A stretch of DNA of 32,000 nt from Stappia sp. 28M-7 (lineage in GTDB: Bacteria > Pseudomonadota > Alphaproteobacteria > Rhizobiales > Stappiaceae). The stretch lies in NCBI RefSeq assembly GCF_014252955.1, contig NZ_JACMIA010000001.1:1974258-2006257 (forward strand), written 5' to 3'. Below the pieces are notes generated by a model that ran no database searches, was not told the DNA's origin, and saw nothing but the letters and a program-made list of their open reading frames with translations. Of the stretch, positions 8,702-32,000 are shown piece after piece. Every line of letters begins with the position of its first letter. Within the stretch, counting starts at the first letter, position 1. The translations under genes were made by a program, and so were the position numbers.

Positions 8702-8736
8702 CCGGCAATATGACGGAGTTTCCGTCTATATGCCGG
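8702..8736 (-). other. Composite hairpin spanning the AraC-gene stop codon (6-bp outer stem, 4x4 internal loop, 6-bp inner stem)
   Basis: CCGGCA-ATAT-GACGGA-GTT-TCCGTC-TATA-TGCCGG was read directly. The stop codon (8726-8728 on the minus strand) lies inside it. No U-tract follows on the minus strand. Confidence 0.3.
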
Positions 8737-9730
8737 TTACCTCCAGCCGGTTGCGGCGGACAAAGTCGGAGGGCGTCATGCCGTATTCGCGCAGGAACAG
8801 CTGCGAGAATCGGCTCGGATTGGCATAGCCCACCGCCAGCGCCGTCTCGGTCACCGTCGCCCCGTCGCGCGCCAGCAGCGTGCGCGCCTCCTCCATCCGC
8901 GACTTCTGCAGGAAGCTGTAGACCGGCAGGCCGAACTGCTGGCGGAACCCGTCCTTCAGCCGCTTTTCGCTGAGGCCGACGCAGATCGCGAGGTCGTGGA
9001 TGGTCCAGCTGCGGTCGAGCTGGCGCAACAGCGTGTTCTTCGCCTCGTTGAGCTTGCGCGAGTCGCGCAGGATCTTCGTCTTCTGGCAGAACAGCGGCTC
9101 GCGCATCATCGAGATCGCCGCGGTCAGCAGGTCGAGGCAGCGCGCCTCGATCGCCAGGTCCTCGCAGCAGCGGTCGAGCCCGCTGGCCACCAGCCCGGCG
9201 GCCAGCGCGTCGATCATTTCCGTCGCCGGGAACCGGCCGACCCAGAACGAGCCGGCGGCGGCGACGGTCAGCGGATGGCCGCCGAGCGCCTGCTCGAACA
9301 GGGCCATCGCATCGAGCCGGCGCAGGAATGCCTCGCTCACGCGGATCTCGATGCCGCGGAAGCGCGTGTCCGCCGGCACGTCGTAGACCCCGCAAATCGG
9401 CGTCTTGGAAAAGATCATCAGTGCCGAGCGCGGATCGTAGTCCAGCCGCACCGGATGCGGGTCGCCGTCCAGCGCGCGCAGCATGCTGCTGCCGGTCGCG
9501 TGCTGCAGGATGACGATGGTCAGGCCCGGCGCCATGTTGGCCGTGCGGCGGAAGCGGTCCTGCAATTGCAGGTCATAGACGGACAGTTCAAGCCCGAGCC
9601 GGATGCCGAAGCGACGGAACTCTCCGTCGACCGCCGTCTCCGTCAGGCCGCTGTGGCTTGGCTGCCGCGCCGCGAGATCGAGCTCGCTGGCAGCCTGGCT
9701 CAAAGGGCGCTCTTCGATGTTCAGAGCCAT
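8726..9730 (-). CDS. AraC-family transcriptional regulator, probable cluster-situated regulator (same genomic role as YbtA/PchR)
   Basis: The 334-aa ORF has a C-terminal double-HTH AraC signature (WTIHDLAICVGLSEKRLKDGFRQQFGLPVYSFLQKSRMEEARTLL ... ALAVGYANPSRFSQLFLREYGMTPSDF). GGGAGAGG RBS lies upstream of ATG 9730. It is divergent from the PKS-NRPS operon. Confidence 0.88.
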   Translation of the reverse strand: MALNIEERPLSQAASELDLAARQPSHSGLTETAVDGEFRRFGIRLGLELSVYDLQLQDRFRRTANMAPGLTIVILQHATGSSMLRALDGDPHPVRLDYDPRSALMIFSKTPICGVYDVPADTRFRGIEIRVSEAFLRRLDAMALFEQALGGHPLTVAAAGSFWVGRFPATEMIDALAAGLVASGLDRCCEDLAIEARCLDLLTAAISMMREPLFCQKTKILRDSRKLNEAKNTLLRQLDRSWTIHDLAICVGLSEKRLKDGFRQQFGLPVYSFLQKSRMEEARTLLARDGATVTETALAVGYANPSRFSQLFLREYGMTPSDFVRRNRLEVTGI

Positions 9731-9857
9731 TCGAACCTCTCCCAGGGCTGCGCACCAGAAAAGTGCCTAAGGCGGAAGGTGCACGCAAAAATAAGTATCC
9801 GATTGGGGCCGTGCCGGCCCGGATCGGGGTAGCGGGCCCGTCCATGATCTCCAATTC

Positions 9858-9874
9858 TTGACTGAAAAAGTCAA
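9858..9874. promoter_or_regulatory. Perfect palindrome TTGACT-GAAAA-AGTCAA; fits TGA-N9-TCA (RirA iron-responsive operator style); candidate metal-responsive operator
   Basis: Read directly in the lower-GC divergent intergenic region, 106 bp upstream of the PKS-NRPS ATG. TGA is at 9859-9861, N9 at 9862-9870, TCA at 9871-9873. The left arm also resembles a -35 hexamer. Confidence 0.35.
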
Positions 9875-9908
9875 CATTTAATCGCGCTCCCCCGAAACCC
9901 GCTTTTGC

Positions 9909-9928: not shown

Positions 9929-9979
9929 TCAGGAAAACAGCGGGTTATCGCACTGCGACAGGTCAGCTGGAGTTTACGC

Positions 9980-11700
9980 ATGTCCGTTGTCTCGCCTGAG
10001 GTTCCCGCCGTCGAAACGCTGGTCGATGCCATTGCGCACTGGGCCGGGGAACGGGGGGAGGAGATCGCGCTCGACTTCCGCGCCCGCTCTGGCGCCGCGC
10101 CGGTGACGCTCACCTATGCGCAGCTGTCGGCGAGCGCCCGGGCGCTCGCCGCGCGGCTTTCGGAAAAGGGGAGCCGGGGCGAGCGGGTGCTGATCCTGCT
10201 GCCCTCCGGCATCGACTACGTGGTGGCGCTGCTGGGCTGCATGCAGGCCGGCTTCATCGGCGTTCCGGTCAACCTGCCGGGTCCCTCGCGGGTCCGCCGG
10301 GTGCTCGGCAAGGTCGGCCCGATAGCGGCAGACTGCCGGCCCGCCTTCATCGTCACCACTGAGGAGATCCGCCGCCAGTCGCAGGCCGACCTGGAGGCCT
10401 TCGCGCAGGAGGCCGGGGCTCGCGTCCTCATCCTCGATGCGCCGTGCGAGCGGTGCGCGTGGCAGGGTGATCCCCTTCGCGGCACGGACACCGCCTTCCT
10501 GCAATACACCTCTGGTTCCACCGGCGAGCCCAAGGGCGTGATCAACGGCCACGCGCCCCTGATGCGCAACCTGCGCTTCATCGCCCGCCTGCTGGCACCG
10601 AAAGAACGGCCCGTCGTCGTCAGCTGGCTTCCGCTCTATCACGACATGGGGCTGATCATGGGGGTGTTGGCGCCGCTGGTGGCCGGCGGCAAGGCCGTGG
10701 TCCTGTCGCCGACCTCCTTCGTCGCCGATCCACTCCACTGGCTTGAGGTGGCGTCGGCGGAAGGGGCGGGCATGATGCCGTGCCCGGCCTTCTCCATGGA
10801 TGCCTGCGTCGAGCGCTACGACGCTGCACGCTGCGCCGATCTCGATCTCAGCCGGGTGGAGAGCTTCATTCCCGCCGCCGAGCCGGTGCTGCCGCGCCAG
10901 GTCGCGGCCTTCCGCGACACCTTCGCCCCGCATGGGCTGAGGCCGGAGGCGATCCGCCCGGCCTACGGTCTTGCCGAGGCGACGCTGCTGGTGACCACCG
11001 GCTTCGAGCCCGCCGGCCCGCGCCATCTCGCCGTCGATACCGCCGCCCTGGAGGAGGGGCGCGTCGTTCCGGTCGCGGAGGCGGCGGCGGCTGCCTCGCG
11101 CATCTATGTCTCCAACGGCGCGGAGACGGACGGTCAAGACGTGCGGATCGTCGATCCGCAAACGCTGGAGACCCTGCCCGAAGGGCGGGTCGGCGAGATC
11201 TGGGTCGGCGGCGACGAGATCGCCTGGGGATACTGGGGCAACGAGGCGGCCAGCGCGGCGACCTTCCGTGCGGTTCCCGCCGACGGTGCGCCGGAGCATG
11301 CGTTCCTGCGCACCGGCGATCTCGGCTTCCTGCAGGACGGCCATCTCTATGTGACCGGCCGGCTCAAGGACATGATGATCCTGCGCGGCCAGTGCCACTA
11401 CCCCAACGACCTGGAGGCAAGTCTCGTCGGCGCGCATCCGGCCATCGTCGGCGGCGCAGCGGCGGCCTTCGCCGTCGAGGACGCACAGGGGCGCGAGGCG
11501 GTCGTGCTGGTGCAGGAGGTGCGCCGCGACGGATCCCTCGATACGGGCGAGGTCGAAAGCACCATCCGCGAGGTGATCGCGCGCGAGCACGGCCTGGCGC
11601 TCGCCGATGTTGTGCTCATCCGCAAGGGGACGTTGAAGCGCACCACCAGCGGCAAGGTCCGGCGGGCGGAGATGCGCCGCGCCTATCTTGCCGGCGAGCT
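9980..11700 (+). other. Domain: fatty acyl-AMP ligase (FAAL) loading domain
   Basis: Motifs: FLQYTSGSTGEPKGV (A3), SWLPLYHDMGLIMG (FAAL/FadD32-type motif), YGLAEATL, GDLGFLQDGHLYVTGRLKDMMILRGQCHYPNDLE. The domain is fused directly to a carrier domain. Confidence 0.85.
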
Positions 11701-14700
11701 GGTTCTTGCGGTGGCGCCCGTGGCCGACGAGCCGGCCTCCCGGCCGGCGCCGGCAGCGGACGGCTACCGCGCGCTGGTGGCGGAGATTGCCGCCCGCGCT
11801 CTCGGCCTCGGCTCGGCGCGCCGGATCGACCCGCAGGCGAGCCTTTTCGCTCTCGGCTTCGATTCCCTTGCCGCGACGCAGGCGATTGCCGCGCTCGAGG
11901 CCCGGCTCGGCCGCCAGCTGCCCGAAGGACTGCTCTTCGACCATCCGACGGTGGCATCGCTTGCCGACTGGCTGGCCCGCGCCGAACAGGCAGACAGCGA
12001 GCCTGCGCAGACGTCGGCCGCCTCCCGTGCCGATGCCCGAGCCGCATCCAGTTCCGCCCCGCGCGCCGAGCCGCTGGCGATTATCGGCCTGTCCTGCCTC
12101 TTTCCCGGAGGCGATGAGGACTTCGACGATCCCGCGCGCTTCTGGTCCTTCCTCATGGAGGGCGGCGATGCGGTGCGCCCGCTCAGCCCCGCGCGCTTTG
12201 CCCCGGAACCGGAGATCCCCGGCTTCGGTGCCTGCCTCACCCGCGTCGACGGGTTCGACGCAGCCTTCTTCGGCATGGGCGCGCGCGAGGCGATCAACAC
12301 CGATCCGCAGCAGCGCCTGCTGATGGAGGCCGCCTGGCATGCGCTGGAGGATGCGGGCATTCCCCCCTCAAGCCTTGCCGGCACGGATACTGGCGTCTTC
12401 ATCGGCATCGGCACGGGCGATTACGGCCACATTCCCTTCGCCACCGGCGACCGCTCCCACCTCGATCCCTATTACGGCACCGGCACGGCCTTTGCCGCCG
12501 CCGCCGGCCGGCTTTCCTTCTTCTTCGACTGGCACGGGCCGAGCCTTGCGGTCGACACGGCCTGCTCCGCCTCCCATGCCGCCGTTCACAGCGCCTGCCA
12601 GGCGCTGCGCCTTGGCGAATGCGGGGTGGCGCTGGCCGGCGGCGTCAAGCTGCAGATGTTGACCGAGATCGACGTGGTGCTGGCGCGCGCCGGCATGCTG
12701 GCCCCCGACGGGCGGTGCAAGACGTTCGATGCCTCGGCGGACGGCTATGTGCGCGGCGAGGGGCTCGGCATGGTGGTCCTGAAGCGCCTGTCCGACGCGC
12801 TGCGCGATGGCGACCCGATCCGGGCCGTCGTGCTGGAAAGCGTGCTGGCGCAGGACGGCGCCAGTGCCGGCCTGTCTGCGCCCAATGCCGCCGCGCAGCG
12901 CCGGATGATCGAGACGGCGCTGACGCGCGCCGGCCTGACGCCCGGCGATATCGACTATCTGGAGCTGCATGGCACCGGCACCCGGCTCGGCGATCCCATC
13001 GAATATCGCGCGGTGCGCGATGTCTTCGCCGGCCGGCCGCAGGACGATCCGCTCTATCTCGGCTCGGTGAAGACCAATATCGGCCATCTGGAAGCGGGAG
13101 CCGGCATCGCCGGCCTGATCAAGGCGGTGCTGGCGGTGGAGGCCGGGCAGATGCCGCCGCATCTCCACCTCAATGAGGTCAATCCGGAGATCGGCCTGGG
13201 CGAGATCCCGGCCGTGGTGCCGGACCGCGCGACCGACTGGCCGCGCCGGGGTTCCCTCCGGCGCGCCGGCGTCACCTCCTTCGGCTTTGCCGGCACCATC
13301 GGTCACATCCTGCTGGAACAGGCGCCAGAACAGGAGCCAGAACGGGCGTTGGAGCGCGCACAGGAGACCGAAGGGAGCGAAGCGGAGGGCAAGCCGCCGC
13401 TGCTCCTTGCCTTCTCCGCCCGCAGCCGCGAGGCGGCGGACGGCCTGCGCCGCGCCTTCGCCGAGCGCCTGTCGCAACCGGGCACAGACGCCCGCGCGCT
13501 GGTCAACGCGGCCGCCCATCACCGCGACCATGAGGCGGGGCACCGCATCGCCGTCGCCGCCGGCGATGCGGCGGGGCTCGTTGCCGAGCTGGAGCGCGCG
13601 GTCTGCGAGGAAAGTCCGGCTGCACCCGCCCGCGTCGCTTTCCTCTTCACCGGGCAGGGCGCGCAATATCCGGCCATGTGCCGGGGGCTCTACGAGGCCG
13701 AACCGGTCTTCCGCGAGGCCTTCGACCGCGCCGACGCTGCCCTGCAGCCGCATCTCGGCCGCTCGATCCGCGATCTCGTCTTCTCCGCCAGCGAGGACGA
13801 GCTTCGGCGCACGGAGTTTGCCCAGCCGGCGCTCTTCGCCGTCCAGTTCGCGCTGGCCCGGCTCTGGCGTGCCTTCGGCATCGAGCCCGCCGCCGTCATC
13901 GGCCACTCCATCGGCGAGTTCGCCGCTTTTGTTCATGCCGGGATGCTGGAGCTCAATGATGCAGCCCGCATCATCGCCCGTCGCGGCCGGTTGATGCAGG
14001 AGCTCCCCGAGGCCGGCGCGATGCTCGCCGTGCGCCTGCCCCAGGACGAGGCCGAGGCTCTTGCCGAAGAGCACGGCCTGTCGCTCGCCGCCGTCAACTC
14101 CTCCGCCGATGCGGTGCTTGCGGGAAGCGAGGACAAGGTGGACCGGCTCGCCGCCATGCTGGAGGGGCGGGGCGTCAGCGCCCGCCGCCTGCATGTCTCG
14201 CACGCTTTCCACTCGGCCTTGATGGAGCCGATGCTGGCGCCCTTTGCCGAGGTCGCCGGGGATATCGTTCTCGGCGATCCGCGCCTTCGGGTCTTCTCCA
14301 CCGTCACGGGGGCGGAACTGGAGCGGGCGCCCGGCGCCGACTACTGGGGCACCCAGGCGCGCCGCACCGTCCGCTATGCCGAGGCGCTCGCCCGCGCCTT
14401 CGAGGCCGGCTTCGACACCTTCGTCGAGATCGGCCCCCGGCCGGTGCTCACCATGCTGTCGCAGCGCGAGGCCCAGCACCACGATCTGACCGGCGCGCTG
14501 TTCCTGGCGAGCGCCGCGCCGGACGATGCCGGCGGCCTGATGCTGCGCCGCAGCCTTGCCGCGCTCTACCGGCGCGGCGTCGATGCCAATCGCGCGGCCG
14601 TGTTCCGGGGCGAGCGCGCGCGGCCCTCGCAGCTGCCGCTCTACCCTTTCGCGCACAAGTCCTATTGGCTCGACTACAGCGCCTCGCAGCCGACGCGTGC

Positions 14701-17700
14701 CGCCCTTCCGGCCCCGGGGCGCGACAGCTCCGGCGTGCTGCCGCTCTACCAGGTGGAGTGGGAGCAGGTCGAACTGCCCCCGGCTGCGCCCGCCGCCGCA
14801 TCTGTCCCCGGCGCTCCGCTGCTTGCCGTCGGCGGGTCGCCGGACCTTGTCCGCGCACTTCGCGCGGCCGCGCCGGGGCGGGAGATCGCCGCTTGCGGCA
14901 GCGATGAGCAATTCGCCGGAAATTCGGAACAGCCGATCGTCTGGCTCGATGGGTTCGGGGTCGAAGGGGAGGCCGCGGACCCTGCATCCTGCGTCTCGAA
15001 CTTGTGGAGGTTGATACGCCTTTCTCAAACCTTGCAGTCGACTTCGCAAAAATTCCGCATCCTTCTCCCGACCTGCGGAGCGCAGGGCGAAAACGGCACG
15101 AATGCGCCATTTCAGGCCGCATTCTGGGGGGCGGCGCGCTCGCTTTCGATCGAATGCCCGGATCTCCAGATCCTGCTTGTCGACATCGATCCGCGATGCG
15201 ATCCCGCCGGGATATTCACGGAGCTCCTGCCGCGCCTCGATGCCGTTTTCGAAGAGCAGGACATGCTGCAGGCGCGTGCCGACGGCTGGTTCTCGCCGCG
15301 CATAACGCCGCTCGAGGCCGCGGCCTCGCAAGATACCGGCGACCTGCCGGTCGACGGGGCATATCTCGTGTGCGGCGGGGCCGGCGCGACCGGTGCCCAT
15401 GTGGTCGAGTGGCTGGCTGCAAGGGGCGTGCGGCACATCGTCGTCACCGCCCGCAGTGCGCCGGGACCAAGGGTCCGCGCCGCCCATGAGCGTTTGCGGC
15501 TTGCCGGCGTCGACATTCGCCATGTCGAGGCGGATGTCGCCGACGAGGCGGCGATGGCCGCCGTTCTTGCCGGCATCGACGGGGACAACGTGCCGCTGCG
15601 CGGCGTCTTCCATTGCGCCGGCATAGGCCTTTTCGACACGCTCGAAGAGCTTGGCGAGGAGAATTTCTCGGCCGTTTTGCGCTCCAAGCTGGAGGGCTCG
15701 GCGGTGCTCCACCGCCTGACCGAGCACCGCACCGATCTTGCGGTCTTCGTGCTGTTTTCCTCCATCTCCGGCGTGTGGGGATCGCGCCTCCAGATCCATT
15801 ACGGCGCCGCCAATGCCTACCAGGATGCCCTTGTGCGCTCGCGCCGCGCCCGTGGTCTGCCCGGCTTGTCCATCGCCTGGGGGCCGTGGGGCGGCAAGGG
15901 CGGGCTCTCCGACCTGGAGGATAACCTTCTCGACCTGCTGCGGCGGGCCCGCATCCACAAGTTCGAACCGGCACGCGGCATCGCCACGCTGAACCGGCTC
16001 GTCGCGGGACCCGGCGGCAATGTCGTCGCCGTCGATGTGGAATGGCCGGCCTTCGCGCCGCTCTATCGCGCCTTCGGGCGCAGCGACTTGCTGGCCCGTG
16101 TCGCGCCGGCGCTTGCCGGGCCGGTGGAGGGCGAGCATCCGGACTGGTCGCGCCTGTCGGAAGACGAGCGTCGCCAGACGGTCGGCGCTTTCGTCGATGC
16201 GGCGCTGCGCGAGGTGCTGAAGGTCGATGCCGGGGTTCTGACCGACGAGGCGGACCTGATCGGCCTCGGCCTCGATTCCATTCTGGTGATGGACCTTGCC
16301 CGGATCGTCACCCGCGATCTTGGTCTTGCCTGCCCCTTGCGGGCGATCTTCGAGAACGCGACGCCTGGCCGGCTGCGCGCCCACCTCGTCGACCTCGCCG
16401 GAGAGGCGGAGCCGGCTCCAGGCGGCGGGGACACGTTGCCCGGCAGCGGCGGGCAGGGCCTGATCCTTGCCGATCCCAATGCCCGCCACGAGCCGTTCCC
16501 TCTCACCGAATTGCAATACGCCTACTGGGTGGGGCGCGATCCGAGACATGTCCTCGGGGGCATCGCCTGCCACGCCTATCTTGAGACCGAGCCGGATACC
16601 CCCTTCGACGTGACCCGTCTGGAGGATGCCTGGAACCTGCTGATCGCCCGCCACGACGCGCTTCGGCTGGTCGTCGACGACAGCGGCCGCCAGCGCATTC
16701 TGGAAGAGGTTCCGCGCTATCGCATCGAGGTAACGGATCTTTCCAACGCGGATCCGGACCGCATCGCCTATCACCTGCTGGAGATGCGCGAGACCCTGTC
16801 GCATCAGGTGCTCGATCCCTCGGCCTGGCCGATGTTCGACATCCGCCTGACGCGCATGCCCGGCGGCCGCGACCGCCTGCACATTTCCATCGACATGCTT
16901 ATCAACGATGCGATGAGCAGCCAGATCCTCTGGCAGGAATGGCAGGCGCTCTACCTTGCAGGCTCGCCCGAGGCCGCCGGCCTGCCGCCCTTCACCATCT
17001 CCTTCCGCGATTATGTCCTGGCCAAATCGGCCCCGGATGCGGAGCGCAAACGGCGCCAGGAGATCGACCGCGCCTACTGGATGGCGCAGCTCGACGAGCT
17101 GCCGCAAGGTCCGCAGCTGCCGCTGGCGCGTGCGCCGGAACATATCGGAGTGCCTCGCTTTTCCCGGCTTCAGGCAGGTCTCGACGCGTCCCGCTGGGAG
17201 GCGCTGAAGGCGCAGGCCCGCGCGGTCGGGGTGACCCCGGCTGGCCTTCTCGTCGGCGTCTTCGGCGAGGTGCTCGCCGCCTGGAGCGACCAGGCGCGCT
17301 TCTCGCTCAACCTGACGATCTTCGACCGTCTCGCCCTCCACGAGGACGTGCCCCGGCTGGTCGGCGACTTCACCTGCCTGACCCTGCTTCCGCTCGACTT
17401 CGGTACGGCCATGCCGCTCGGCGAGCGGTTGCGCGAGGTGCAGGGGCGCATGTTCGAGGCGCTGGAACACCGGACCTTCAGCGCGGTCGACGTGCTGCGC
17501 GAGTTGAACCGTGGCGGCTCCGGCCGGCAGTTTGCAGCGCCCGTGGTCTTCACCAGCCAGCTCGGCATGCAGGACCCCACCAAGGGCACGTCGGAAGGAG
17601 ACGTGCTCGGCCGGCTTGTCCACGGCATCACGCAGACGCCGCAGGTCTGGCTCGACCATCAGGCGGGCGAGCAGGACGGCGGGCTCGTCTACAACTGGGA

Positions 17701-25500: not shown

Positions 25501-28500
25501 CGGTCGGAGACGGTGTCGACGACCGATGCTGCGGGCCTGATCGCCGGGCTCGCCGCACGGGCCGGCGACGGGTTCTGGCGGTTCGAGGGCGTGCGGCTTG
25601 TCCCCGCAGCTAAACCGCAGGCCCTGCGTTGGACCAGTGTCGAGACCGAACTTGCCCTTGCAACGGAAACGGGGGCGGAGGTGATCGCGGCAAGGCCCGC
25701 CCGCTTTGCCGGGACCACGCTGCCGCCCATGCCCGGCGAGAACGCGGCCGCCGTCGCCGGATCGCTTGCCGAGGCCTTGCGTCCGGCATTGGCCGGGTTC
25801 GACGGGCAGGGACCGCTTGTCGCCGATGCGGTGAGCGGCACCGGCACCGATGTCTCGGGCGGCCGGCTGTCCGTCCGTTCGCACGACGCTGGCGGGCTGG
25901 GCATTGCCGTCTTCGACAAAACGGACTGGCCGGTCCTGTGGATCGACAATCTCCGCAGGGTCCGGCCGGCCGCCGCCGCGACACGCCCCCAGCTCTGCCA
26001 TTGGCGCTGGGAGGCTGCCAACTCCCGTGTGTCCGCGGGGCGTGTCGCGGCGGTGATCCCGTTCGAAACCGAGCTTTCGCTGCCGGCCGATGCGGGCGAC
26101 GGCGATACCTGTCTTGTCGATCTCACAAAGGCCGACGAGGGGCGGTCGCTTTCCGCTCTCTCTGCCGCCCTGGCTGCGCTGTTGCCTGCGGCGGCGAAAT
26201 CCGGCTGCCGGATCGTGCTGCTGACGCGCGGGGCATTGGCTGCCGTGCCCTGGGACCGGCCTTGTGCGCCGCTGATGGCCGGACTTGCCGGTCTCGTGCG
26301 GGTGGCGGCGCAGGAATATCCGGGCCTGGCGTTGCGACTCGTCGATGACGACGGCAGCCATGGCGAGGACGCGCTGCATCGGGCCTGCCTGGTCGAGGAC
26401 GGCGAGGCGGTCGTCGCCCTGCGCCGGGGGCGGCGCTTCGTGCCGCGCCTCATGGCGCAGGAGGCAGCTCCTTCCTCGTTCGGAGTGGAGCCGGACGGCC
26501 TGCATCTTCTGCTCGGCGGATTGTCGCCGATGGGCCTTGCAACGGCCGAATGGCTGGCCGGAAAAGGTGCGCGCAGCATCCGCATCGCCGCTCGCCGCAC
26601 CCCGTCGGAGGCAGAGGCGGCCCGGATCGCTGCGCTGACTGCTGCCGGGGTCGAGGTGGCCGTCGACAGCAACATCGATCTGGCCGATGCGGCCGCGACG
26701 GATCGGCTGCTCTCGGCCATCGAAGGGGGGACGCTCGCCTCGCTCTTCCACTTCGCTGGGCATCTGGAGGACAGGCCGCTCGCCTCCCTGGATGCTGCCG
26801 CGCTGGAACGGGTGCTGGCGCCCAAGCTGCGGCCGGCCGAAGCCCTGTGCCGGCATATCGCACGGCTGGCGCCTAGGCGCGTGGTTTTCGCTTCATCGGC
26901 CGCGACCGTCTTCGGCCCGGCGGGCCAGGGCGCGCACGCCATTGCCAATGCCGCTCTGGAAGGACTTGCAACCGCGCTGCGCGCGGACGGCATTGCAGCG
27001 ACCGCGCTTGCCTGGGGCTTCTGGGGTGACGGGCGCGCGGAGCGGGTACGGCTGGCGCAGGACCTTGCCGGCCGGGGCATGCTGACGCTCGCGCCGGACG
27101 AGGCGCTGTCGTTGATGGAAGCGGCGCTGGACCTCGGCCACGCGGTGGCAAGCCCGCTGCATGTCGACTGGCAGGCCCTGGCGGGTGCTGCGGGCGGGCG
27201 ACTGCCGCCGGCCCTGTCGCGAATGGCGCAGGCCGCACCGGCCCGCGAGCCGGCACTTGCGCATGGGGATACTGTCGAACCTGTCGGCATCGAGACCTGG
27301 CTTGTCGACCGTCTGGCGAGCCTGCTCGCTCTTCCGCGCGAGCGGATCGACATGCAGGCCAGCCTGCTGTCGCTGGGGATCGATTCCCTGATGATGCTGG
27401 AACTCGCGCAGGCGGTGAAAGGCGAACTGGGGCTCGAGCTTTCGGCAGCTTTCGCCTTGCAGGACCAGACGCCGGCCTCGCTTGCCCGGCACCTCGCTGA
27501 GGCTGGTGGCCAGCTCCCGCCGAAGGCGGCGGGCGCGGACCTTGCAGCCATCGTCATGAACCTGATCGCCGATCTTCTCTCGCTGCCTGCGGATACGGTG
27601 CGCCCCGAGAGCCGGCTGATCGACCTGGGGCTCGACTCCCTGCTGTTTCTCGACCTGTCCGAAAGGCTTGCCGCCGAGACCGGGCTGCGGCTGTCGGGCG
27701 AGGCGGCCATGCGCTTCGATACGGTCGGCGCGCTCATCGAGGGGATCCGCTCGCAGGGCGGTTCGCGGGAGGACGCGGAGGCAGGATCGCTGCGGGCGGC
27801 GCTCGCGGAACTGTCCGCCAGCCGCCAGGGGCTTCTGCTCGCGAATGGCGATCTCGCGCCGGTACCGGTACGCCCGGGCATGACTTGGTCGCTGTCGCCG
27901 CTCCAGCGGGCATGGTGGCTGGGCCGGCGGGCAGGCGCACCGCTCGGCGGCACCGCCCGGCACATGTATGTGGAATACGACAAGGAGACGGCGAGCTTCG
28001 ACCTCGACGCCTTCGAGCAGGCCTGGGCCCGGTTCGTGCAGCGCCACCCGGCCCTGCGCATGACCGTCGATGACGAGGGCAGGGCGGTGCCGGCCGATGT
28101 CGAGACGGTTCCTCCGATCGTCCGCGAGGACCTCTCCGGCCTGACCGACGCGGAGCGGGAGGAGCGGCTTGCCGAAACCCGCCGGCGCATGAGCGCACAG
28201 GCGTTCGACCTGTCCGCCTGGCCGTTTTTCGAATGGCGCGCGTCGCTGCTGCCGGAAGGGCGCCTGCGCCTGCACTTCGACATCGACACGACCTTCCTCG
28301 ATATCGAGAGCTTCCAGGTGATGTTGCGCGAGCTTGGTCGCCATGTGGGGGCGCCCGGTCAGGAGCTGCCGCCGCTGAGCTTTGCGGCGACTGACTACAT
28401 GCGCGGCATGGCGCTGGTGGGAAAGACGCAGGCCGCAGAACAGGCACGCGCAGCGGCTCGCAGGCGCCTTGCCGCCCTGCCGCCGGCGCCGGACCTGCCG

Positions 28501-29256
28501 CTTGCCGCGCTGCCCGAAACACTGCCGCCGCGGTTCGCCATCGAACGCCGGGCGCTCGACCGCGCGTCCTGGCTTTCGGTCCGGGATGCGGCGGCCGGCC
28601 GGGGCGTTTCCGGCACGGCGCTGGTGCTTGCGGCCTTCGCCGCCGGCTTGCGCAGGTGGTCGGCGGACACGGAGCGTTTCTCCCTGCAACTTGCCTATCC
28701 CGACCGCAAGCCGCTGCATGCGGAAGCGATGAACATCGCCTGCGAGGCGAGCGCGGCAATGGCGGTCCCGTTCGATTTCGCGGGGGCGCCGAGTTTCGGG
28801 GATCTCATGGAGCGAACCGAGGCGGCGATCCGCGAGAACCTGTCGCAGCTGCTGTGCGGAGGGCTCGCCGACGACACTGCGGCGGAGGACCTGCCGACGC
28901 TGATGTTCCCGGTGGCGATGACATCGCTGCTCGGCGTGCGGCAGGCCTATGCGCTGCCGGAAAGCGCCGACCCGCTGCTCGGCATGCCGGCCTATGAATA
29001 CGCGGCCCAGCCGCAGGTGGCGCTGCATTTCCAGGTGCTGGAGGAGGAGCGCGAGCTGCTGTGCAACATCGACGAGATCTCCGGACTGTTCCCGCAAGGG
29101 CTCGCCGCATCCGTCTTCGATACGGTGATGGCGATCCTCGCGAAGGGCGAGAAGGCATGGTCGCTGCCGCTGGAGGAGTTCGCCGGTACCGGTGCGCCCC
29201 GTGAGGGCGCCAGCTCCCTGCGCGCCTGGCTCGGAGGCTTTGGCCATGTCGGGTGA
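22597..29256 (+). CDS. Hybrid PKS-NRPS: KS-(AT-less linker)-C-methyltransferase-KR-like-ACP-ACP-Cy
   Basis: Frame 22429-29256 is trimmed to ATG 22597 (MRAFDMSLFTEIYQDVEPVAIIGAGCRF...), with AGGA 6 nt upstream. The start lies 36 nt after the gene 1 stop. Domain motifs are listed separately. Stop TGA at 29254-29256. Confidence 0.93.
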   Translation: MRAFDMSLFTEIYQDVEPVAIIGAGCRFMGAADPFTFWQRLADGEELSRRVTAQDLAAAGLDPSLLERDDFVPVASVVDEAEHFDAELFGYSPAEAATIDPQQRLFLACSREALDMAGLAETVAGMRVGVFGSARMSTFSMPQPEDVLSAGQSRTFQRLIGNDKDYLATRTAYKLGLTGPALTVQTACSSSLVAVHVACEQLRSGECDLALAGGAALTFPMAAGYFHQPGMIFSPDGTCRPFDAEASGTFIGNGVGVVLLKPLRRALEDGDGILAVIRGSAVNNDGTDKAGFTAPSLAGQRAVIEEAMALAGVTSDSIGMVETHGTATPLGDPIELNALAEAFGRDTPRRHPCALGALKANTGHLDTAAGIGALIKAAFSVRTGLIAPCLHFRKPNPALEIDATPFMVPQALQAWPDGPRIAGVSSFGIGGTNCHVIVEDLPEPLKPARLKADGPLQLALSAPDLPGLRALSQAHADLLLEGAYEGELPRYCETLARQHKGARGARLEIGGGNGLELARTLSLFARTGGEDAAFVQDKDAAAPCWRAGLAETEAELPAGPAGPRVIAPVAPRVGGRIARPGAREGRDDGWGELVASLQEASRLRAAEHDWSSLDAEGAAVARLHAIHVAHAFDRLGVFADGAWRTVEEAMAAGGILPHYAQLTARLLRDLVDEGVLRREGDRFGALQVPPMAEAAPLLDDMAGRGYRRLTGMVARVGPQLAQMLTGTVDAVSLVFPSAAMDDVEDMYERQRDSVFLNDLAADAVAAIVEALPAGKPLRVLEIGAGTGGTTSALLPVLPARRTRYTFTDIGPLFLRKARDKFAAFPFLDFATLDIEKDLAAQGFEPGSYDLVVAANVLHNGRDLTRVLTDVRGLLAPGGVLLMREISQPKPLFDFIFGPLVPVLDDIEARGGELFPSLARWGAFLTGAGWSDWSSFPPEGQKDGAIGETILLARNGKPAAPVASTSLANRSETVSTTDAAGLIAGLAARAGDGFWRFEGVRLVPAAKPQALRWTSVETELALATETGAEVIAARPARFAGTTLPPMPGENAAAVAGSLAEALRPALAGFDGQGPLVADAVSGTGTDVSGGRLSVRSHDAGGLGIAVFDKTDWPVLWIDNLRRVRPAAAATRPQLCHWRWEAANSRVSAGRVAAVIPFETELSLPADAGDGDTCLVDLTKADEGRSLSALSAALAALLPAAAKSGCRIVLLTRGALAAVPWDRPCAPLMAGLAGLVRVAAQEYPGLALRLVDDDGSHGEDALHRACLVEDGEAVVALRRGRRFVPRLMAQEAAPSSFGVEPDGLHLLLGGLSPMGLATAEWLAGKGARSIRIAARRTPSEAEAARIAALTAAGVEVAVDSNIDLADAAATDRLLSAIEGGTLASLFHFAGHLEDRPLASLDAAALERVLAPKLRPAEALCRHIARLAPRRVVFASSAATVFGPAGQGAHAIANAALEGLATALRADGIAATALAWGFWGDGRAERVRLAQDLAGRGMLTLAPDEALSLMEAALDLGHAVASPLHVDWQALAGAAGGRLPPALSRMAQAAPAREPALAHGDTVEPVGIETWLVDRLASLLALPRERIDMQASLLSLGIDSLMMLELAQAVKGELGLELSAAFALQDQTPASLARHLAEAGGQLPPKAAGADLAAIVMNLIADLLSLPADTVRPESRLIDLGLDSLLFLDLSERLAAETGLRLSGEAAMRFDTVGALIEGIRSQGGSREDAEAGSLRAALAELSASRQGLLLANGDLAPVPVRPGMTWSLSPLQRAWWLGRRAGAPLGGTARHMYVEYDKETASFDLDAFEQAWARFVQRHPALRMTVDDEGRAVPADVETVPPIVREDLSGLTDAEREERLAETRRRMSAQAFDLSAWPFFEWRASLLPEGRLRLHFDIDTTFLDIESFQVMLRELGRHVGAPGQELPPLSFAATDYMRGMALVGKTQAAEQARAAARRRLAALPPAPDLPLAALPETLPPRFAIERRALDRASWLSVRDAAAGRGVSGTALVLAAFAAGLRRWSADTERFSLQLAYPDRKPLHAEAMNIACEASAAMAVPFDFAGAPSFGDLMERTEAAIRENLSQLLCGGLADDTAAEDLPTLMFPVAMTSLLGVRQAYALPESADPLLGMPAYEYAAQPQVALHFQVLEEERELLCNIDEISGLFPQGLAASVFDTVMAILAKGEKAWSLPLEEFAGTGAPREGASSLRAWLGGFGHVG
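22651..23925 (+). other. Domain: ketosynthase KS2 (C-H-H intact)
   Basis: VAIIGAGCRF, DPQQRLFL, VQTACSSS (Cys codon 23158-23160), ETHGTATPLGDPIE, KANTGHLDTAAG, GIGGTNCHVIVE. Confidence 0.92.
24450..25465 (+). other. Domain: SAM-dependent C-methyltransferase (PKS cMT type)
   Basis: LRVLEIGAGTGGTT (intact GxGxG), YTFTDIGPLF, YDLVVAANVLHNGRD, LLAPGGVLLMRE. Confidence 0.85.
26200..27030 (+). other. Domain: KR-like, with catalytic Tyr replaced by His and a weakened NADPH motif
   Basis: The KR structural part is RIVLLTRGA...GLVRVAAQEYPGL. The Rossmann motif reads LLLGGLSPMGLATAEWL (GGxSxxG, not GGxGxxG). Lys (APKLRP) and Ser (FASSAATVFG) are present, but the expected Y reads H in GQGAHAIANAAL (His codon 26935-26937). 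Confidence 0.7.
27289..27505 (+). other. Domain: carrier protein (ACP3)
   Basis: LLSLGIDSLMMLEL, Ser codon 27385-27387. Confidence 0.85.
27541..27755 (+). other. Domain: second tandem carrier protein (ACP4, or a functional PCP)
   Basis: LIDLGLDSLLFLDL, Ser codon 27637-27639. Confidence 0.85.
27880..29253 (+). other. Domain: C-terminal heterocyclization-type domain (Cy3)
   Basis: LSPLQRAWWLGRR is a variant of FPLTxxQxAYxxGR. DxxxxDxxS is present as DTTFLDIES (28285-28311). The domain is full-length (about 455 aa) and runs to the stop codon. Confidence 0.8.
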
Positions 29257-30370
29257 GGTGCTGAACGTCGTCGTCTGCGGCACCTGCTTCGGCGAGCACT
29301 ACCTTGCCGCCATCGCACGGCTTGGCGGGGATGTCCGCCTGGCCGGCATCCTGGCGCGCGGGGGCGCTCGCTCGCGTGCGCTCGCCGCTCATCTGGACGT
29401 GCCGCTCTATCGGGACGTTGCGGACCTGCCGGCCGATATCGACGTGGCCTGCGTCGTTGTCCGCACCACGCTGTTCGGCGGCGACGGCAGCCGCCTTGCC
29501 GAGGCACTGCTGAAGCGCGGCATTCATGTGCTGCAGGAGCACCCCGTGCATCCGGGAGAGGTCGCCTCGCTGCGCCGGCAGGCGGAGGGCGCAGGCGTGC
29601 GCTACCACGTCAACAGCTTCTACCCGCATCTGCCGGCGTTCCGGCATTTCATCGCCTATGCGAGCGCGGCGGGCGAACGGGCCCCGGCGGCCTTTGCCGA
29701 AGTCACCACCAGCCCGCAGCTGCTCTATTCGGCGCTCGACAGCCTGGGGCGCAGCCTCGGCTCGCTGGCCGGGCTCGAATGCCTCGGCCCTCTGGTTCCG
29801 CCGTCCGAGGCGTTGCCGTTCCATGCCTTCCAGGGGCGGGTCGGCGGCATTCCCTTCTCATTGATGCTGCAATCCTGGCTCGACCCGTCCGACCCGGATC
29901 ACCACTCGCTGGTCATGCACCGCATGGCGGTCGGCTGGCCCGAGGGCGCGGTCAATCTGGTCAACAGTTTCGGCCCCGTCGTGTGGAGCCATTCGCTCTA
30001 TGCGCCCGACTATCGGCAGGACGGCGAGGCGAGCTCCTATCTGCTGTCGCCGGAGCGCCATGCCGGCTGTCGCCACTTCACGCAGCCGAGCGCCCATGTG
30101 CTGGGCTCGCCCGCCGGCGCGCCGTTCTGGGACGTGGTGCATGGCGAATTTCCCGAGGCGATCGGCCATGCGCTCGCCGAGCTGCGCTGCGCCATCGAGG
30201 CGCCGGGCAGCGTGCCCTGGCAGTCGGACGCCTATCTCGCCGACCTCGGCAAGGCCTGGCTGACCGTGTTGCGCCAGGCCGGACCGCCGCGCGAACGCGC
30301 CATGCCGGTGCCGCCGCCGCCCCATCCCGATCCCGTTGAATTCGCAAGGACCCTCACCGATGCCGACTGA
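29246..30370 (+). CDS. Thiazolinyl imide reductase (YbtU/Irp3/PchG family)
   Basis: ATG 29246 (MSGEVLNVVVCGTCFGEHYL...) has GGAGG 8 nt upstream and overlaps the gene 2 stop by 11 nt. Blocks match my memory of Irp3/YbtU: ARGGARSRALAAHLDVPLY, DVACVVVRTTLFGG, GIHVLQEHPVHPGEV, NSFYPH, TTSPQLLYSALD, LDPSDPDHHSLVMHRMAVGWPEG, FGPVVWSHSLY. Confidence 0.9.
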   Translation: MSGEVLNVVVCGTCFGEHYLAAIARLGGDVRLAGILARGGARSRALAAHLDVPLYRDVADLPADIDVACVVVRTTLFGGDGSRLAEALLKRGIHVLQEHPVHPGEVASLRRQAEGAGVRYHVNSFYPHLPAFRHFIAYASAAGERAPAAFAEVTTSPQLLYSALDSLGRSLGSLAGLECLGPLVPPSEALPFHAFQGRVGGIPFSLMLQSWLDPSDPDHHSLVMHRMAVGWPEGAVNLVNSFGPVVWSHSLYAPDYRQDGEASSYLLSPERHAGCRHFTQPSAHVLGSPAGAPFWDVVHGEFPEAIGHALAELRCAIEAPGSVPWQSDAYLADLGKAWLTVLRQAGPPRERAMPVPPPPHPDPVEFARTLTDAD

Positions 30371-31130
30371 ACCGGTCGCAGAGCGCACCCGCAGCGCCTA
30401 TTCCGCCCTCGACGAGGCTTTCGTGCAGGCCGGGCTCGACGGGCACGCGCATTTCCTCAACTGGGGCTATGAGCCGATTGCCGGGCTTGCCGACGGTGCC
30501 GTTCCCGGACTTGTGCAGCCGGGCGCCAACGAGGCGTGCGAGCGTCTCGTCGCCGAACTGGTGGGTCCCGTCTCGCTCGACGGTCTGCGGGTTGCGGACA
30601 TCGGCTGCGGCCGTGGTGGCGCGCTGGATGTCGTCCTGCGCCGGTTCCGCCCACTGTCGGCCATCGGGCTCGATCTCAGCGCCGACAACATCGCCGGGGC
30701 CCGGCGGTTGCTCTCCGGGCGACGCGTCCGCCTGCAGGTGGCCGATGCCTGTGCGCTGCCGCTGGGGGAGGCCAGCCAGGATGTCGTCCTCAACCTGGAA
30801 TCCTCCGGGGCCTATCCGGACATGGGCGCCTTCCTGCAGCACGTCCGGCGCGTGCTGGCGCCCGGCGGGTTGTTCCTGCACGGCGACCTCTGGCCGTCCG
30901 AGCTGGTCGGCCCGTTCATCGAGACGATGGAGGAGATGGGCTTCGTGCTGGAGAGCCTGCGCGACGTGACGCGGCAGGTGTGCCGCGCGCGCGACCGGAT
31001 GCCCGCCGGGCTGATGTCGCGCCTTGCCGGCAGCAGGGGCGCGGCAGAGGTGGAGGACTACTTCGCCGCACCCGGCTCGGCCATGTACGACTGCCTCGAC
31101 CGGGGCGCCATCGCCTATCTGCTTTGCCGC
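30360..31130 (+). other. Domain: class I SAM methyltransferase
   Basis: HFLNWGYEP, VADIGCGRGGALD (intact GxGxG, about 30591-30629), VVLNLES, LAPGGLFLHGD. Confidence 0.8.
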
Positions 31131-32000
31131 TGGCGGCGCGGCGAAGACCCGGGCGGAAGCGTGGACACGGGCCCGCTCGAGAGGCGCGCGGCGCGGATCG
31201 ATGCGCTGCTGGGCGAGGCGCGCGCCTCGCTTGCCGAGCGTGCCGACTGGTTCCCGTTCGGCGGGCCGAGACGAGGCGCCGACGTCAACATCCTCGCCTT
31301 TCCCCATGCGGTGGCCGGTGCCTCGGCCTTCAAGAACTGGCAGGCCCGGTTCCCGCGCGACTGGCAGGTCTCGCCGGTGCAGCTGCCCGGCCGCGAGGGA
31401 CGGATCGCCGAGCCGCCGTTCACCTCGCTGTCGGCGGCCGTCGAGGCCTTGCTGCCGAAGGTGAGACCCTACCGGGACACGCCGCTCGTTCTTCTCGGCT
31501 GGAGCCTTGGCAGCAAGATCGCGTTCGAGCTGGCGCACCGGCTGGAGCAGGAAGGCGTCTGCCAGCCGCTGCTGGTGGTGGCTGGCGTGTGTCCCGGACC
31601 GCATCAGCCGCTGCCGGATCTTCGCAGCTTTTTCGGCGAGGACGGCATGGAAACGCGGCTGCGGCTGCTCGGCGGAACGCCGGAGAACATCCTGTCGAGC
31701 GGCGAGATGCTGTCGGCGCTGCAAACGACGATGGAGGGCGATACCGCGATGGCGGCGAGCTATCGCAGCGAGGCGGTGATCCGCGCGCCGATGCTGGCGC
31801 TGTCCGCCACCGGCGATGAGCTCGTCTCAAAGGAGGCGGTGGAAAGCTGGCGGCCGCGCACGGCGGGAGGCTTCACCCATCGCCGGCTGGAGGGCGGACA
31901 TTTCATGGCGCGCGACGATGCGCCGACCGTCGCCGGCGTGGTGAAGGAGGCGGTCGCAGCGCGCCTGCGCCAGGGCTCCCGACAGGCGGAGGTCGCATGA
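30360..32000 (+). CDS. Fusion protein: class I SAM-dependent methyltransferase (N-terminal) + type II-like thioesterase (C-terminal)
   Basis: ATG 30360 (MPTEPVAERTRSAY...) has AAGGA 9 nt upstream and overlaps the gene 3 stop by 11 nt. The reading frame is continuous to TGA 31998-32000, the last bases of the window. Confidence 0.88.
   Translation: MPTEPVAERTRSAYSALDEAFVQAGLDGHAHFLNWGYEPIAGLADGAVPGLVQPGANEACERLVAELVGPVSLDGLRVADIGCGRGGALDVVLRRFRPLSAIGLDLSADNIAGARRLLSGRRVRLQVADACALPLGEASQDVVLNLESSGAYPDMGAFLQHVRRVLAPGGLFLHGDLWPSELVGPFIETMEEMGFVLESLRDVTRQVCRARDRMPAGLMSRLAGSRGAAEVEDYFAAPGSAMYDCLDRGAIAYLLCRWRRGEDPGGSVDTGPLERRAARIDALLGEARASLAERADWFPFGGPRRGADVNILAFPHAVAGASAFKNWQARFPRDWQVSPVQLPGREGRIAEPPFTSLSAAVEALLPKVRPYRDTPLVLLGWSLGSKIAFELAHRLEQEGVCQPLLVVAGVCPGPHQPLPDLRSFFGEDGMETRLRLLGGTPENILSSGEMLSALQTTMEGDTAMAASYRSEAVIRAPMLALSATGDELVSKEAVESWRPRTAGGFTHRRLEGGHFMARDDAPTVAGVVKEAVAARLRQGSRQAEVA
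31280..31960 (+). other. Domain: alpha/beta-hydrolase thioesterase, type II-like motifs
   Basis: NILAFPHAVAGASAFKNWQ (compare TEII CFPxAGGSAxxFxxW), GWSLGSKIAFE (Ser codon 31503-31505), GGHFM (His codon 31899-31901). Confidence 0.82.

Follow-up and report, generated by a model that had tools for sequence, protein, structure and literature searches.

The agrochelin (agr) locus of Stappia sp. 28M-7 and the altered terminal Cy-like domain of its AT-less polyketide synthase

Introduction

The yersiniabactin (HMWP2/HMWP1/Irp3/YbtT/YbtA) and pyochelin (PchE/PchF/PchG/PchC/PchR) systems share with the agrochelin (agr) cluster a Cy-A(MTe)-PCP-Cy-PCP block with one cysteine-activating A domain, an Irp3/PchG-type reductase and an AraC-type regulator, and the KS-cMT-KR chemistry of agr is as in HMWP1. 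The agr cluster differs from both in that an iterative PKS making an alkylsalicylate start replaces the salicylate synthase, aryl-AMP ligase and ArCP, the second PKS module has no cis-AT, a terminal MT-PCP-TE is absent, and the MT-TE is a discrete protein.

The micacocidin/massiliachelin family has been characterised since 2011–2019. In Ralstonia solanacearum and R. pseudosolanacearum, MicG is laid out like AgrB (KS-cMT-KR-ACP-ACP-Cy-like), and the mic locus also shares with agr the reductase, the MT-TE fusion, the AraC regulator and the TonB receptor. Unlike agr, it encodes MicH (2006 aa, Cy-A-MT-PCP-TE), adding a third, methylated thiazoline, and its gene order is split, with micH divergent and genes of an ABC transporter and a receptor between micG and micC; moreover, a PPTase domain may be fused to the Ralstonia MT-TE. 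The FAAL of MicC has been tested in vitro (PMC4334309), and the 6-pentylsalicyl moiety is formed from hexanoate and three malonyl units (PMC10291242). The massiliachelin cluster of Massilia sp. NR 4-1 (PMC6604713; PMC10291242) lacks MicH, like agr, and contains homologues of MicC and MicG and a thiazolinyl imide reductase; massiliachelin is made under iron limitation (PMC6604713), and shares its planar structure with agrochelin but is a different stereoisomer.

The agr cluster is already known: it was published, with its producing strain, product and MIBiG entry, in February 2026. Agrochelin from strain 28M-7 is documented by m/z 467.205 and NMR connectivity, agrochelin II being a 6-pentylsalicyl-thiazoline-N-methylthiazolidine-hydroxy-dimethylpropanoate (PMC12997852). 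The cluster and the compound are linked in Stappia by co-occurrence in one strain and by domain logic, the accessible part of PMC12997852 containing no gene knockout. In Stappia, succinate was the trigger of production; regulation by iron has been shown for Massilia, not for 28M-7.

Results

Identity of the locus

The window, that is, the whole analysed stretch of 32,000 nucleotides from Stappia sp. 28M-7 ("Stappia quadratibracata"), contains the following genes.

433..8610, no strand: left flank, outside the cluster (Pfam; aldehyde dehydrogenase, thiolase, then the next three genes)
3550-4728, plus strand: ChaN-family haem/iron lipoprotein (Pfam)
5191-7308, minus strand: K+/H+ antiporter (Pfam)
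7480-8610, minus strand: saccharopine dehydrogenase (Pfam)
8726..9730, minus strand: agrR, AraC-family transcription factor, 334 aa (Pfam HTH_18 and HTH_AraC; exactly MBC2859116.1)
9980..22561, plus strand: agrA, MicC homologue, 4193 aa (ATG start at 9980, RBS-like GGAG upstream)
22597..29256, plus strand: agrB, MicG homologue, 2219 aa (Pfam; length as in Table S14)
29246..30370, plus strand: agrC, thiazolinyl imide reductase of the Irp3/PchG type, 374 aa (Pfam GFO_IDH_MocA and Irp3-like_C; exactly MBC2859119.1)
30360..32000, plus strand: agrD, SAM-methyltransferase-thioesterase fusion, 546 aa, complete (Pfam; exactly MBC2859120.1)

With a probability of about 0.95, this is the agr cluster (MIBiG BGC0002764), which belongs to the micacocidin/massiliachelin family and lacks MicH. 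In an exact-sequence look-up four window proteins were 100% identical to MBC2859115.1, MBC2859116.1, MBC2859119.1 and MBC2859120.1 of Stappia sp. 28M-7; the first is exactly orf-1 of the flank, and the others are listed as agrR, agrC and agrD, respectively, in Table S14 of PMC12997852 (AEM 2026). The sizes of agrR, agrA, agrB, agrC and agrD (334, 4193, 2219, 374 and 546 aa) equal those in Table S14, AgrA and AgrB being matched to the published locus by their identical lengths, and the eight-residue insertion in the MTe domain reported for Stappia is found in AgrA of the window. Six flank genes match orf-6 to orf-1 of the same table in order and size. Hence the published cluster and the window show the same locus and the same flanking genes, the sole difference being that the window holds the first five of the nine agr genes, with agrE, agrT1, agrT2 and agrF beyond base 32000 (the window ends exactly with the agrD stop codon). 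A GC content near 70% and the mic-like layout had made Ralstonia or Massilia conceivable sources; the 51–54% identity to Ralstonia FAAL fragments, and then the Stappia matches, ruled these out. No GC shift is observed at the left border (0.65–0.70 in the flank, 0.67–0.73 in the cluster), as an earlier note on this DNA had remarked.

That note placed genes and domains essentially correctly throughout, as judged by Pfam, but considered the assembly line rearranged and non-canonical, and could match it to no characterised cluster. Compared with yersiniabactin and pyochelin, the locus does stand apart in its starter, its AT-less module, its tandem carriers and its discrete MT-TE, which would speak for a novel polythiazoline metallophore cluster unlike any characterised system. 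However, each flagged trait occurs in the characterised Ralstonia mic locus and in at least 25 alpha-, beta- and gammaproteobacterial loci, AgrA is collinear with MicC over 4177 of its 4193 residues, and the comparison with characterised clusters proposed in the note yields 100% identity to published agr accessions. As the window proteins are identical to those accessions (Table S14, PMC12997852), novelty of the cluster is refuted and we reject this reading, to which we assign practically no probability. The seemingly odd architecture is the documented norm of the family, since the locus is the published agr cluster cut at the window end.

Regulator and divergent promoter

The agrR gene is divergent from agrA and occupies the YbtA/PchR position. 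The divergent promoter region contains one further feature.

9858..9874, no strand: perfect palindrome TTGACTgaaaaAGTCAA (contains TGA-N9-TCA), agrR-agrA divergent promoter region

This palindrome is a putative regulator-binding site. It has a single match in the window, where 0.25 matches are expected even with two mismatches allowed, and no further copies were found in the window, before chaN, or in the agrE-agrT1 spacer of relatives. Transcription would be activated by AgrR.

AgrA

AgrA has the layout FAAL-ACP-KS-AT-KR-ACP fused to Cy1-A(Cys, with an embedded MT-like epimerase domain)-PCP1-Cy2-PCP2. Pfam reports two AMP-binding stretches (the FAAL, with a DIP2-like C-terminal part, and the NRPS A domain), KS, AT, KR, four PP-binding and two Condensation-type domains.

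9980..16400, plus strand: starter module (Pfam and motifs)
9980-11704, plus strand: FAAL (Pfam)
11777-11974, plus strand: starter ACP (GFDSL)
12068-13525, plus strand: KS (Pfam)
13640-14533, plus strand: AT (Pfam)
15356-15892, plus strand: KR (catalytic Tyr present, IHYGAAN)
about 16200-16400, plus strand: second ACP (GLDSI)
16472..22474, plus strand: NRPS part (Pfam and motifs)
16472-17854, plus strand: Cy1 (DMLIND)
17900-20524, plus strand: A domain (Pfam)
19766-20314 (ORF aa 3288-3470), plus strand: MT-like domain embedded in the A domain (Pfam; unmentioned in the earlier note)
19898..19921, plus strand: eight-residue insertion GDLPAHTR in the MT-like epimerase domain (alignment; absent from Ralstonia and Pantoea homologues)
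20654, plus strand: PCP1 (GGDSL)
20822-22204, plus strand: Cy2 (DNLVCD)
about 22277-22474, plus strand: PCP2 (GATSL)

AgrA is 48% identical to and collinear with Ralstonia MicC over 4177 aa (residues 13–4189), its FAAL part being 51–54% identical to Ralstonia FAAL fragments. Judging by MicC and the Massilia homologue, the starter module is probably an iterative PKS for 6-pentylsalicylate (PMC10291242, PMC4334309). Both Cy1 and Cy2 are canonical for the Asp-Thr dyad and GDFT motifs. There is exactly one NRPS A domain in the window; its specificity residues, placed by comparison with PheA, are tentatively read as D-L-Y-N-L-S-M-I-W-K, which is cysteine-like. According to PMC12997852, the eight-residue insertion is proposed to inactivate epimerisation, leading to the 14S configuration, and is missing in the MTe domain of Massilia.

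AgrB

AgrB comprises KS, an AT-less linker, cMT, KR, ACP1, ACP2 and a terminal Cy-like domain, and is collinear with Ralstonia MicG at 44–49% identity (MicG was reached via neighbouring genes and tblastn of plasmid records).

22645-24036, plus strand: KS (Pfam)
24037-24906, plus strand: AT-less linker, about 290 aa
24880-25266, plus strand: C-methyltransferase (Pfam)
26497-27027, plus strand: KR (Pfam)
26929..26949, plus strand: KR active-site stretch GAHAIAN (His at the expected catalytic Tyr position)
27298-27495, plus strand: ACP1 (Pfam)
27553-27741, plus strand: ACP2 (Pfam)
27874..29253, plus strand: terminal Cy-like domain (no acceptor carrier after it)

The stretch of about 290 aa after the KS has neither a Pfam AT match nor a GHSxG motif, in agreement with the earlier prediction of a second PKS module without cis-AT. 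The KR of Ralstonia MicG has the same His (GAHASAN), and a Tyr-to-His change in this family was remarked upon in PMC12997852.

AgrC, AgrD and downstream genes

AgrD has no carrier between its methyltransferase and thioesterase domains; this MT-TE family is conserved, and among its members are Ralstonia proteins of 584 aa and of 837 aa, the longer one containing a PPTase domain. Pfam shows the tandem carriers before the last Cy and the separate MT-TE, instead of a terminal MT-PCP-TE, that had been described earlier. It likewise confirms that a FAAL-ACP-KS-AT-KR-ACP module stands in place of salicylate synthase, aryl-AMP ligase and ArCP, and the FAAL, Cy and reductase assignments hold by Pfam and DxxxxD motifs. 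Genes for salicylate synthase, aryl-AMP ligase, TonB receptor, exporter, MbtH and PPTase are absent from the window. For the transport genes, noted before as absent, this is true of the window, but they are not missing from the cluster, being located just past base 32000 in relatives and in Table S14: in Stappia relatives (86–97% nucleotide identity) the genes after agrD encode a type II TE, an MFS exporter-type transporter, a TonB receptor and, finally, a FAD monooxygenase.

MicH (Cy-A-MT-PCP-TE) was found neither in the window, nor in the 10 kb downstream region of Stappia relatives with 86–97% nucleotide identity, nor in Table S14 of PMC12997852, which was covered for all nine agr genes and for flanking ORFs as far as orf +23. 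Thus, the MicH module of micacocidin proper is absent from the window and from this region of the Stappia relatives, while the yersiniabactin (HPI) type differs by its salicyl start genes, not found here, by the cis-AT of HMWP1, which AgrB lacks, and by its terminal Cy-MT-PCP-TE, as no PCP-TE follows the Cy-like domain ending AgrB. The MicC-type AgrA, the MicG-type AgrB, the reductase and MT-TE downstream and the lack of MicH are those of the agrochelin/massiliachelin type.

The reductase and MT-TE pair follows the synthetase genes in at least 25 related alpha-, beta- and gammaproteobacterial loci; neither Ralstonia nor Massilia sp. NR 4-1 was among the genomes recovered with the MT-TE profile. 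Comparison with Massilia sp. NR 4-1 was made via the Oxalobacteraceae proxies Undibacterium and Janthinobacterium rather than the Massilia sequence itself. In these genera the gene order agrA-agrB-reductase-MT-TE is as in agr, with about 40–58% protein identity, but, unlike in agr, the downstream region has other transport genes as well as a gene for a PPTase.

Terminal Cy-like domain of AgrB

The Asp-Thr catalytic dyad plays a role in Cy domains (PMC9547227). In the terminal domain of AgrB the DxxxxD motif (DTTFLD, 28285-28302) and the dyad Thr (PVAMTS) are kept, the catalytic Asp is changed to His (His2144, ALHFQ, 29020-29034), and GDFT is replaced by ACEAS (28738-28752), so that it departs from a functional Cy (PVVFTS ... 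QVxLDxQ dyad and GDFT). The catalytic Asp and GDFT are lost in all 27 AgrB/MicG homologues (27/27), the Cy of MicH, Cy1 and Cy2 being canonical, and the homologues have a conserved signature of their own, xxxxDIES and LH[FL]Q. The domain is full-length across alpha-, beta- and gammaproteobacteria. It occurs alongside MicH in Ralstonia and R. palustris BisB18, and also in clusters that lack MicH, such as those of Stappia, Undibacterium, Pantoea and Erwinia, where it has no acceptor carrier. Its dN/dS among Stappia is 0.16–0.24, indicating purifying selection; since this is about twice the value for Cy2 and KS, the constraint is weaker. A homology search with the AgrB C-terminus gave only remote NRPS matches of 26–33% identity, multi-kilobase synthetases seemingly not being returned.

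These data bear on whether ACP2 could be loaded with cysteine and the terminal domain build a third thiazoline without MicH, to give a three-ring, micacocidin-like product. A full-length, selectively maintained Cy-type domain that retains both DxxxxD and the Thr of the dyad, placed directly after two carriers, is what such a route would use; but loss of Asp and GDFT in 27/27 homologues, the same alteration in Ralstonia MicG, where the canonical Cy of MicH is available for the third ring, and the two-ring compounds with a free carboxylate from the MicH-less Stappia and Massilia make it highly improbable. The two-ring structure of agrochelin and massiliachelin follows from the lack of a MicH module.

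Degenerate X domains recruit P450s in glycopeptide synthetases. Similarly, with the same cluster and product, the terminal domain of AgrB might be active, either in hydrolytic release or in recruiting the AgrC reductase and the AgrD MT-TE. Its retention with and without MicH, its own signature, its dN/dS and the lack of a cis-TE in AgrB are consistent with this, but the dN/dS about twice that of Cy2 and KS, and two discrete thioesterases already on hand for release, leave such activity doubtful. Only tentatively, therefore, do we suggest that the domain may be neofunctionalised rather than a relic, and might release the chain or scaffold the trans-acting reductase and MT-TE. No discussion of this domain was found in the literature covered, which does not extend to the original mic publications (AEM 2011, Chem Biol 2013), so that it may already be described.

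Proposed pathway

For the two-ring agrochelin, the steps up to the AgrB module are proposed by homology to the characterised MicC, MicG, HMWP2 and PchG, whereas release and transport are conjectural. The FAAL of AgrA would load hexanoate on its ACP, and the iterative KS-AT-KR-ACP would add three malonyl units to give 6-pentylsalicyl-S-ACP. The single A domain is predicted to put L-Cys on PCP1 and PCP2, with Cy1 and Cy2 forming two thiazolines; the embedded MT-like epimerase with its insertion may be inactive. AgrC would reduce the second of these rings to a thiazolidine, and the methyltransferase half of AgrD probably N-methylates it. The AT-less AgrB module would then add one malonyl, loaded in trans from a presumed malonyl source, its cMT yielding the gem-dimethyl group and its KR the hydroxyl. 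Against this scheme, the KR has His for the catalytic Tyr, yet the product carries the C19 hydroxyl. Without MicH, a trans-acting thioesterase (the TE of AgrD or AgrE) may hydrolyse the chain off the AgrB ACP, releasing agrochelin II (C23H34N2O4S2), an alkylaryl-capped thiazoline/thiazolidine compound of the chelator class predicted by the earlier note. Export by the MFS protein AgrT1 and uptake by the TonB receptor AgrT2, both encoded just past base 32000, would follow. The conserved terminal Cy-like domain has no part in the pathway so proposed.

Discussion

The anomalies flagged in this locus are defining traits of the micacocidin/massiliachelin/agrochelin family. Besides Stappia, the architecture is widespread, occurring in Rhizobium, Rhodopseudomonas, Methylobacterium/Methylorubrum, Undibacterium, Janthinobacterium, Herbaspirillum, Pseudomonas, Pantoea, Erwinia and Winslowiella. 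The discovery value is small, and what the analysis isolates is a small mechanistic question, the conserved, altered terminal Cy-like domain and chain release.

Identity of the locus

The locus in the window is already known: it has been published and deposited, and its product characterised. Five genes of the cluster are found in the window.

Cluster genes in the window (domains by Pfam)
8726–9730, minus strand: agrR, AraC-family regulator ORF (334 aa)
ATG at 9980, stop at 22561, plus strand: agrA, with GGAG ahead of the start (4193 aa)
22597–29256, plus strand: agrB, KS, linker, C-methyltransferase, KR, carrier, carrier, C-type domain (2219 aa)
29246–30370, plus strand: agrC, Irp3/PchG-type thiazolinyl imide reductase (374 aa)
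30360–32000, plus strand: agrD, methyltransferase-thioesterase (MT-TE) fusion (546 aa)

PMC12997852 (AEM, February 2026) describes isolation of agrochelin II (m/z 467.205, agrochelin connectivity) from Stappia sp. 28M-7 (‘Stappia quadratibracata’) and assigns it to the agr cluster of nine genes (MIBiG BGC0002764). Its gene table, Table S14, gives agrR 334 aa, agrA 4193, agrB 2219, agrC 374 and agrD 546, followed by agrE (TE, 256), agrT1 (MFS, 421), agrT2 (TonB receptor, 672) and agrF (FAD monooxygenase, 384). The entries ahead of agrR are saccharopine dehydrogenase (376), K+/H+ antiporter (705), a 108-aa ORF, ChaN (335), thiolase (397) and methylmalonate-semialdehyde dehydrogenase (499). Among the results of the paper that were consulted, no Stappia gene knockout is reported. 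All five agr gene sizes in the window equal those of Table S14, and the flanking genes are also equal in kind and order. Exact-sequence matches from Stappia sp. 28M-7 were obtained for AgrR (MBC2859116.1), AgrC (MBC2859119.1) and AgrD (MBC2859120.1), as well as for the product of orf-1, the saccharopine dehydrogenase gene left of agrR (MBC2859115.1). As the accessions of AgrR, AgrC and AgrD are all printed in Table S14, the window is identified with the agr cluster of this strain.

The earlier note, made from the sequence alone, had claimed a novel polythiazoline metallophore-type cluster and proposed comparison with characterised clusters as a check. The chemistry class holds, agrochelin being known from the strain, but the novelty does not, given three proteins identical to published accessions. 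The transport and receptor genes called missing are indeed absent from the window, but they come directly after agrD in Stappia relatives (86–97% nucleotide identity to the last 11.6 kb of the window) and also, for the source strain itself, in Table S14. A second iron-related gene near agr encodes a ChaN-family haem/iron-regulated lipoprotein (3550–4728, plus strand); it is located 4 kb upstream of agrR and does not belong to the minimal cluster as published.

Domain organization and promoter region

Pfam bears out the previously proposed parts list and ORF placement, the sole omission being a methyltransferase-like (epimerase) domain inside the NRPS adenylation domain of agrA. Further Pfam matches in the agrA ORF are KS, AT, KR, two AMP-binding regions, two condensation-type domains and four carrier domains; one of the AMP-binding regions has the DIP2-like C-terminal part commonly seen in fatty acyl-AMP ligases (FAAL). 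Specificity residues of the AgrA adenylation domain, with positions mapped via a PheA reference sequence, are tentatively read as D-L-Y-N-L-S-M-I-W-K, one conservative change away from the Cys signature. The epimerase domain contains an eight-residue insertion, GDLPAHTR (19898–19921), peculiar to Stappia according to PMC12997852.

The mechanical ORF of agrA comprises 4218 codons from 9905, and the mechanical list starts agrB at TTG 22429, overlapping agrA and overstating the length (2275 vs. 2219 aa); the genes are separate, with a 35-bp gap between the agrA stop at 22561 and the agrB ATG at 22597. The second PKS module was correctly read as lacking a cis-AT, since the AgrB linker of roughly 290 aa after the KS has neither a Pfam AT match nor a GHSxG motif. 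Tandem carriers before the last Cy-type domain and a separate MT-TE fusion are likewise seen by Pfam; no carrier is matched between the two halves of agrD, and the agrD stop codon closes the window. The last AgrB domain has the DxxxxD motif of the Cy type, as seen in alignment with Cy1 and Cy2, the heterocyclisation domains of AgrA.

The second-module KR, in AgrB, has His at the catalytic Tyr site (GAHAIAN, 26929–26949), as does the KR of Ralstonia MicG (GAHASAN), while the iterative-module KR of AgrA retains Tyr (IHYGAAN, 15794–15814). Despite this His in AgrB and MicG, the corresponding hydroxyl is present in the products. A Tyr-to-His change in the agr/mic family is flagged in PMC12997852, where the proteins are named differently.

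The GC content is uniformly high, at 0.65–0.73 (1-kb windows), and does not shift at the left edge of the cluster, in agreement with the earlier reading of this border. A perfect 17-bp palindrome, TTGACTGAAAAAGTCAA, is present in a single copy in the window, at 9858–9874 in the divergent agrR–agrA promoter region. It is a candidate regulator-binding site that fits the TGA-N9-TCA form of the alphaproteobacterial RirA iron-responsive operator.

Comparison with micacocidin and massiliachelin loci

A FAAL-ACP-KS-AT-KR-ACP part fused to Cy-A-PCP-Cy-PCP is the distinguishing feature of MicC, an enzyme of micacocidin biosynthesis in Ralstonia solanacearum. The architecture had been thought to match no characterised cluster; in fact, AgrA aligns with MicC in a single piece (residues 13–4189, 48% identity), and AgrB is collinear with MicG at 44–49%. 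Identity of the FAAL part of AgrA to Ralstonia proteins is 51–54%, too low for Ralstonia to be the source of the window. The iterative PKS of MicC converts hexanoate to 6-pentylsalicylate (PMC10291242), and an in vitro test of the MicC FAAL has been reported (PMC4334309). Another characterised relative, the cluster for massiliachelin in Massilia sp. NR 4-1, keeps micC and micG and lacks the NRPS gene micH; its product, made under iron limitation, is an agrochelin epimer (PMC6604713).

The Ralstonia mic locus was pieced together from two records, those of R. pseudosolanacearum and of strain SL3103. In the former, micG (product of 2378 aa) precedes a pair of ABC transporter genes, the gene for a TonB receptor, and micC; the final 1215 residues of this MicG are KR-ACP-ACP-Cy-like, as in AgrB, with 46% identity in the Cy-like part. 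In the latter, the locus contains an AraC regulator gene, a divergent gene for the 2006-aa NRPS MicH (Cy-A-MT-PCP-TE), micG, transport genes, micC (4231 aa) and a reductase gene; in another Ralstonia strain, an MT-TE gene follows the reductase gene. In R. solanacearum SL3103 (CP022791.1, about 14452–21776), micG is represented by a pair of ORFs that overlap, 14452–19476 and 19446–21776, and is probably frameshifted; an IS5 transposase gene is found nearby, and this mic locus resides on a 2.13-Mb record labelled plasmid.

Distribution of the architecture

The MT-TE fusion constitutes a conserved family, with best identities to AgrD of 98% and 91% in the homology search. A Stappia sp. protein follows at 87%, Rhizobium sp. 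FKY42 at 63% and Ralstonia at about 39%; one of the Ralstonia proteins has an extra PPTase domain. Scanning one genome per species with the family profile yielded 29 loci, topped by three Stappia genomes (87–90%). Mapping of all window domains by tblastn in Stappia, Rhizobium, Rhodopseudomonas, Methylobacterium, Undibacterium, Janthinobacterium, Herbaspirillum, Pseudomonas, Pantoea, Erwinia, Winslowiella and a Psychromonadaceae MAG revealed a constant order, ...Cy2-PCP2 / KS-linker-cMT-KR-ACP(-ACP)-Cy-like / reductase / MT-TE, after which a second thioesterase usually comes. Given this single order and the Ralstonia mic layout, the flagged features, that is, the iterative-PKS starter, AT-less module, tandem carriers, trailing Cy-like domain and discrete MT-TE, are the normal architecture of the family.

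The agrA-agrB-reductase-MT-TE(-TE) order is seen at 35–60% identity in many beta- and gammaproteobacteria, including insect- and plant-associated Erwiniaceae. In Rhodopseudomonas palustris BisB18 (NC_007925.1), the MT-TE protein is longer (829 aa). The agr-like genes of this phototroph and a second thioesterase gene are followed by a Cy-A-MT-PCP NRPS gene resembling MicH/PchF (13145–17428), which suggests that its product has three rings and is micacocidin-like.

Proposed biosynthesis

By homology to characterised enzymes, hexanoate is activated and iteratively extended to 6-pentylsalicyl-S-ACP, Cys is condensed and cyclodehydrated in two rounds, the second ring is reduced by AgrC, and AgrB performs one malonyl extension, gem-dimethylation and ketoreduction. 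The MT half of AgrD may be the N-methylating enzyme, the chain may be released via the AgrD TE or AgrE, and malonyl for the AT-less AgrB may be supplied in trans. The absence of MicH, the third-ring NRPS module of micacocidin, accounts for a product with a carboxylate terminus behind its polyketide unit, in agreement with the isolated compounds.

Terminal Cy-like domain of AgrB

No acceptor carrier serves the C-terminal Cy-like domain (27874–29253), either in AgrB or in other clusters without MicH. The domain was aligned with 26 homologues, Cy1 and Cy2 of AgrA, and the MicH Cy.

Motif sites of the AgrB terminal domain (from the alignment)
28285–28302, plus strand: DxxxxD
28738–28752, plus strand: GDFT position
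29020–29034, plus strand: position of the dyad Asp

The Asp-Thr dyad is needed for cyclodehydration (PMC9547227). Its Asp is missing in all 27 AgrB/MicG terminal domains, being replaced by His, but by Asn in R. palustris BisB18; GDFT is also missing in 27 of 27, with [DE]A[ST] in its place. The dyad Thr and a family-specific xxxxDIES motif are conserved in these domains, and Cy1, Cy2 and the MicH Cy are canonical at all compared motif positions. The first Asp of DxxxxD is changed to Asn or Ser in Erwiniaceae and to His in Herbaspirillum.

The terminal domain is found both with a canonical MicH-type Cy (Ralstonia, BisB18) and without it. Among Stappia, its dN/dS is 0.16–0.24, compared to 0.08–0.11 for Cy2, 0.04–0.09 for KS and 0.19–0.27 for ACPs. 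With these values and its full length, the domain is constrained rather than decaying, that is, it is under purifying selection. It may serve in releasing the chain, in recruiting partners or in docking, and this altered domain is the sole residual point of modest interest at the agr locus.
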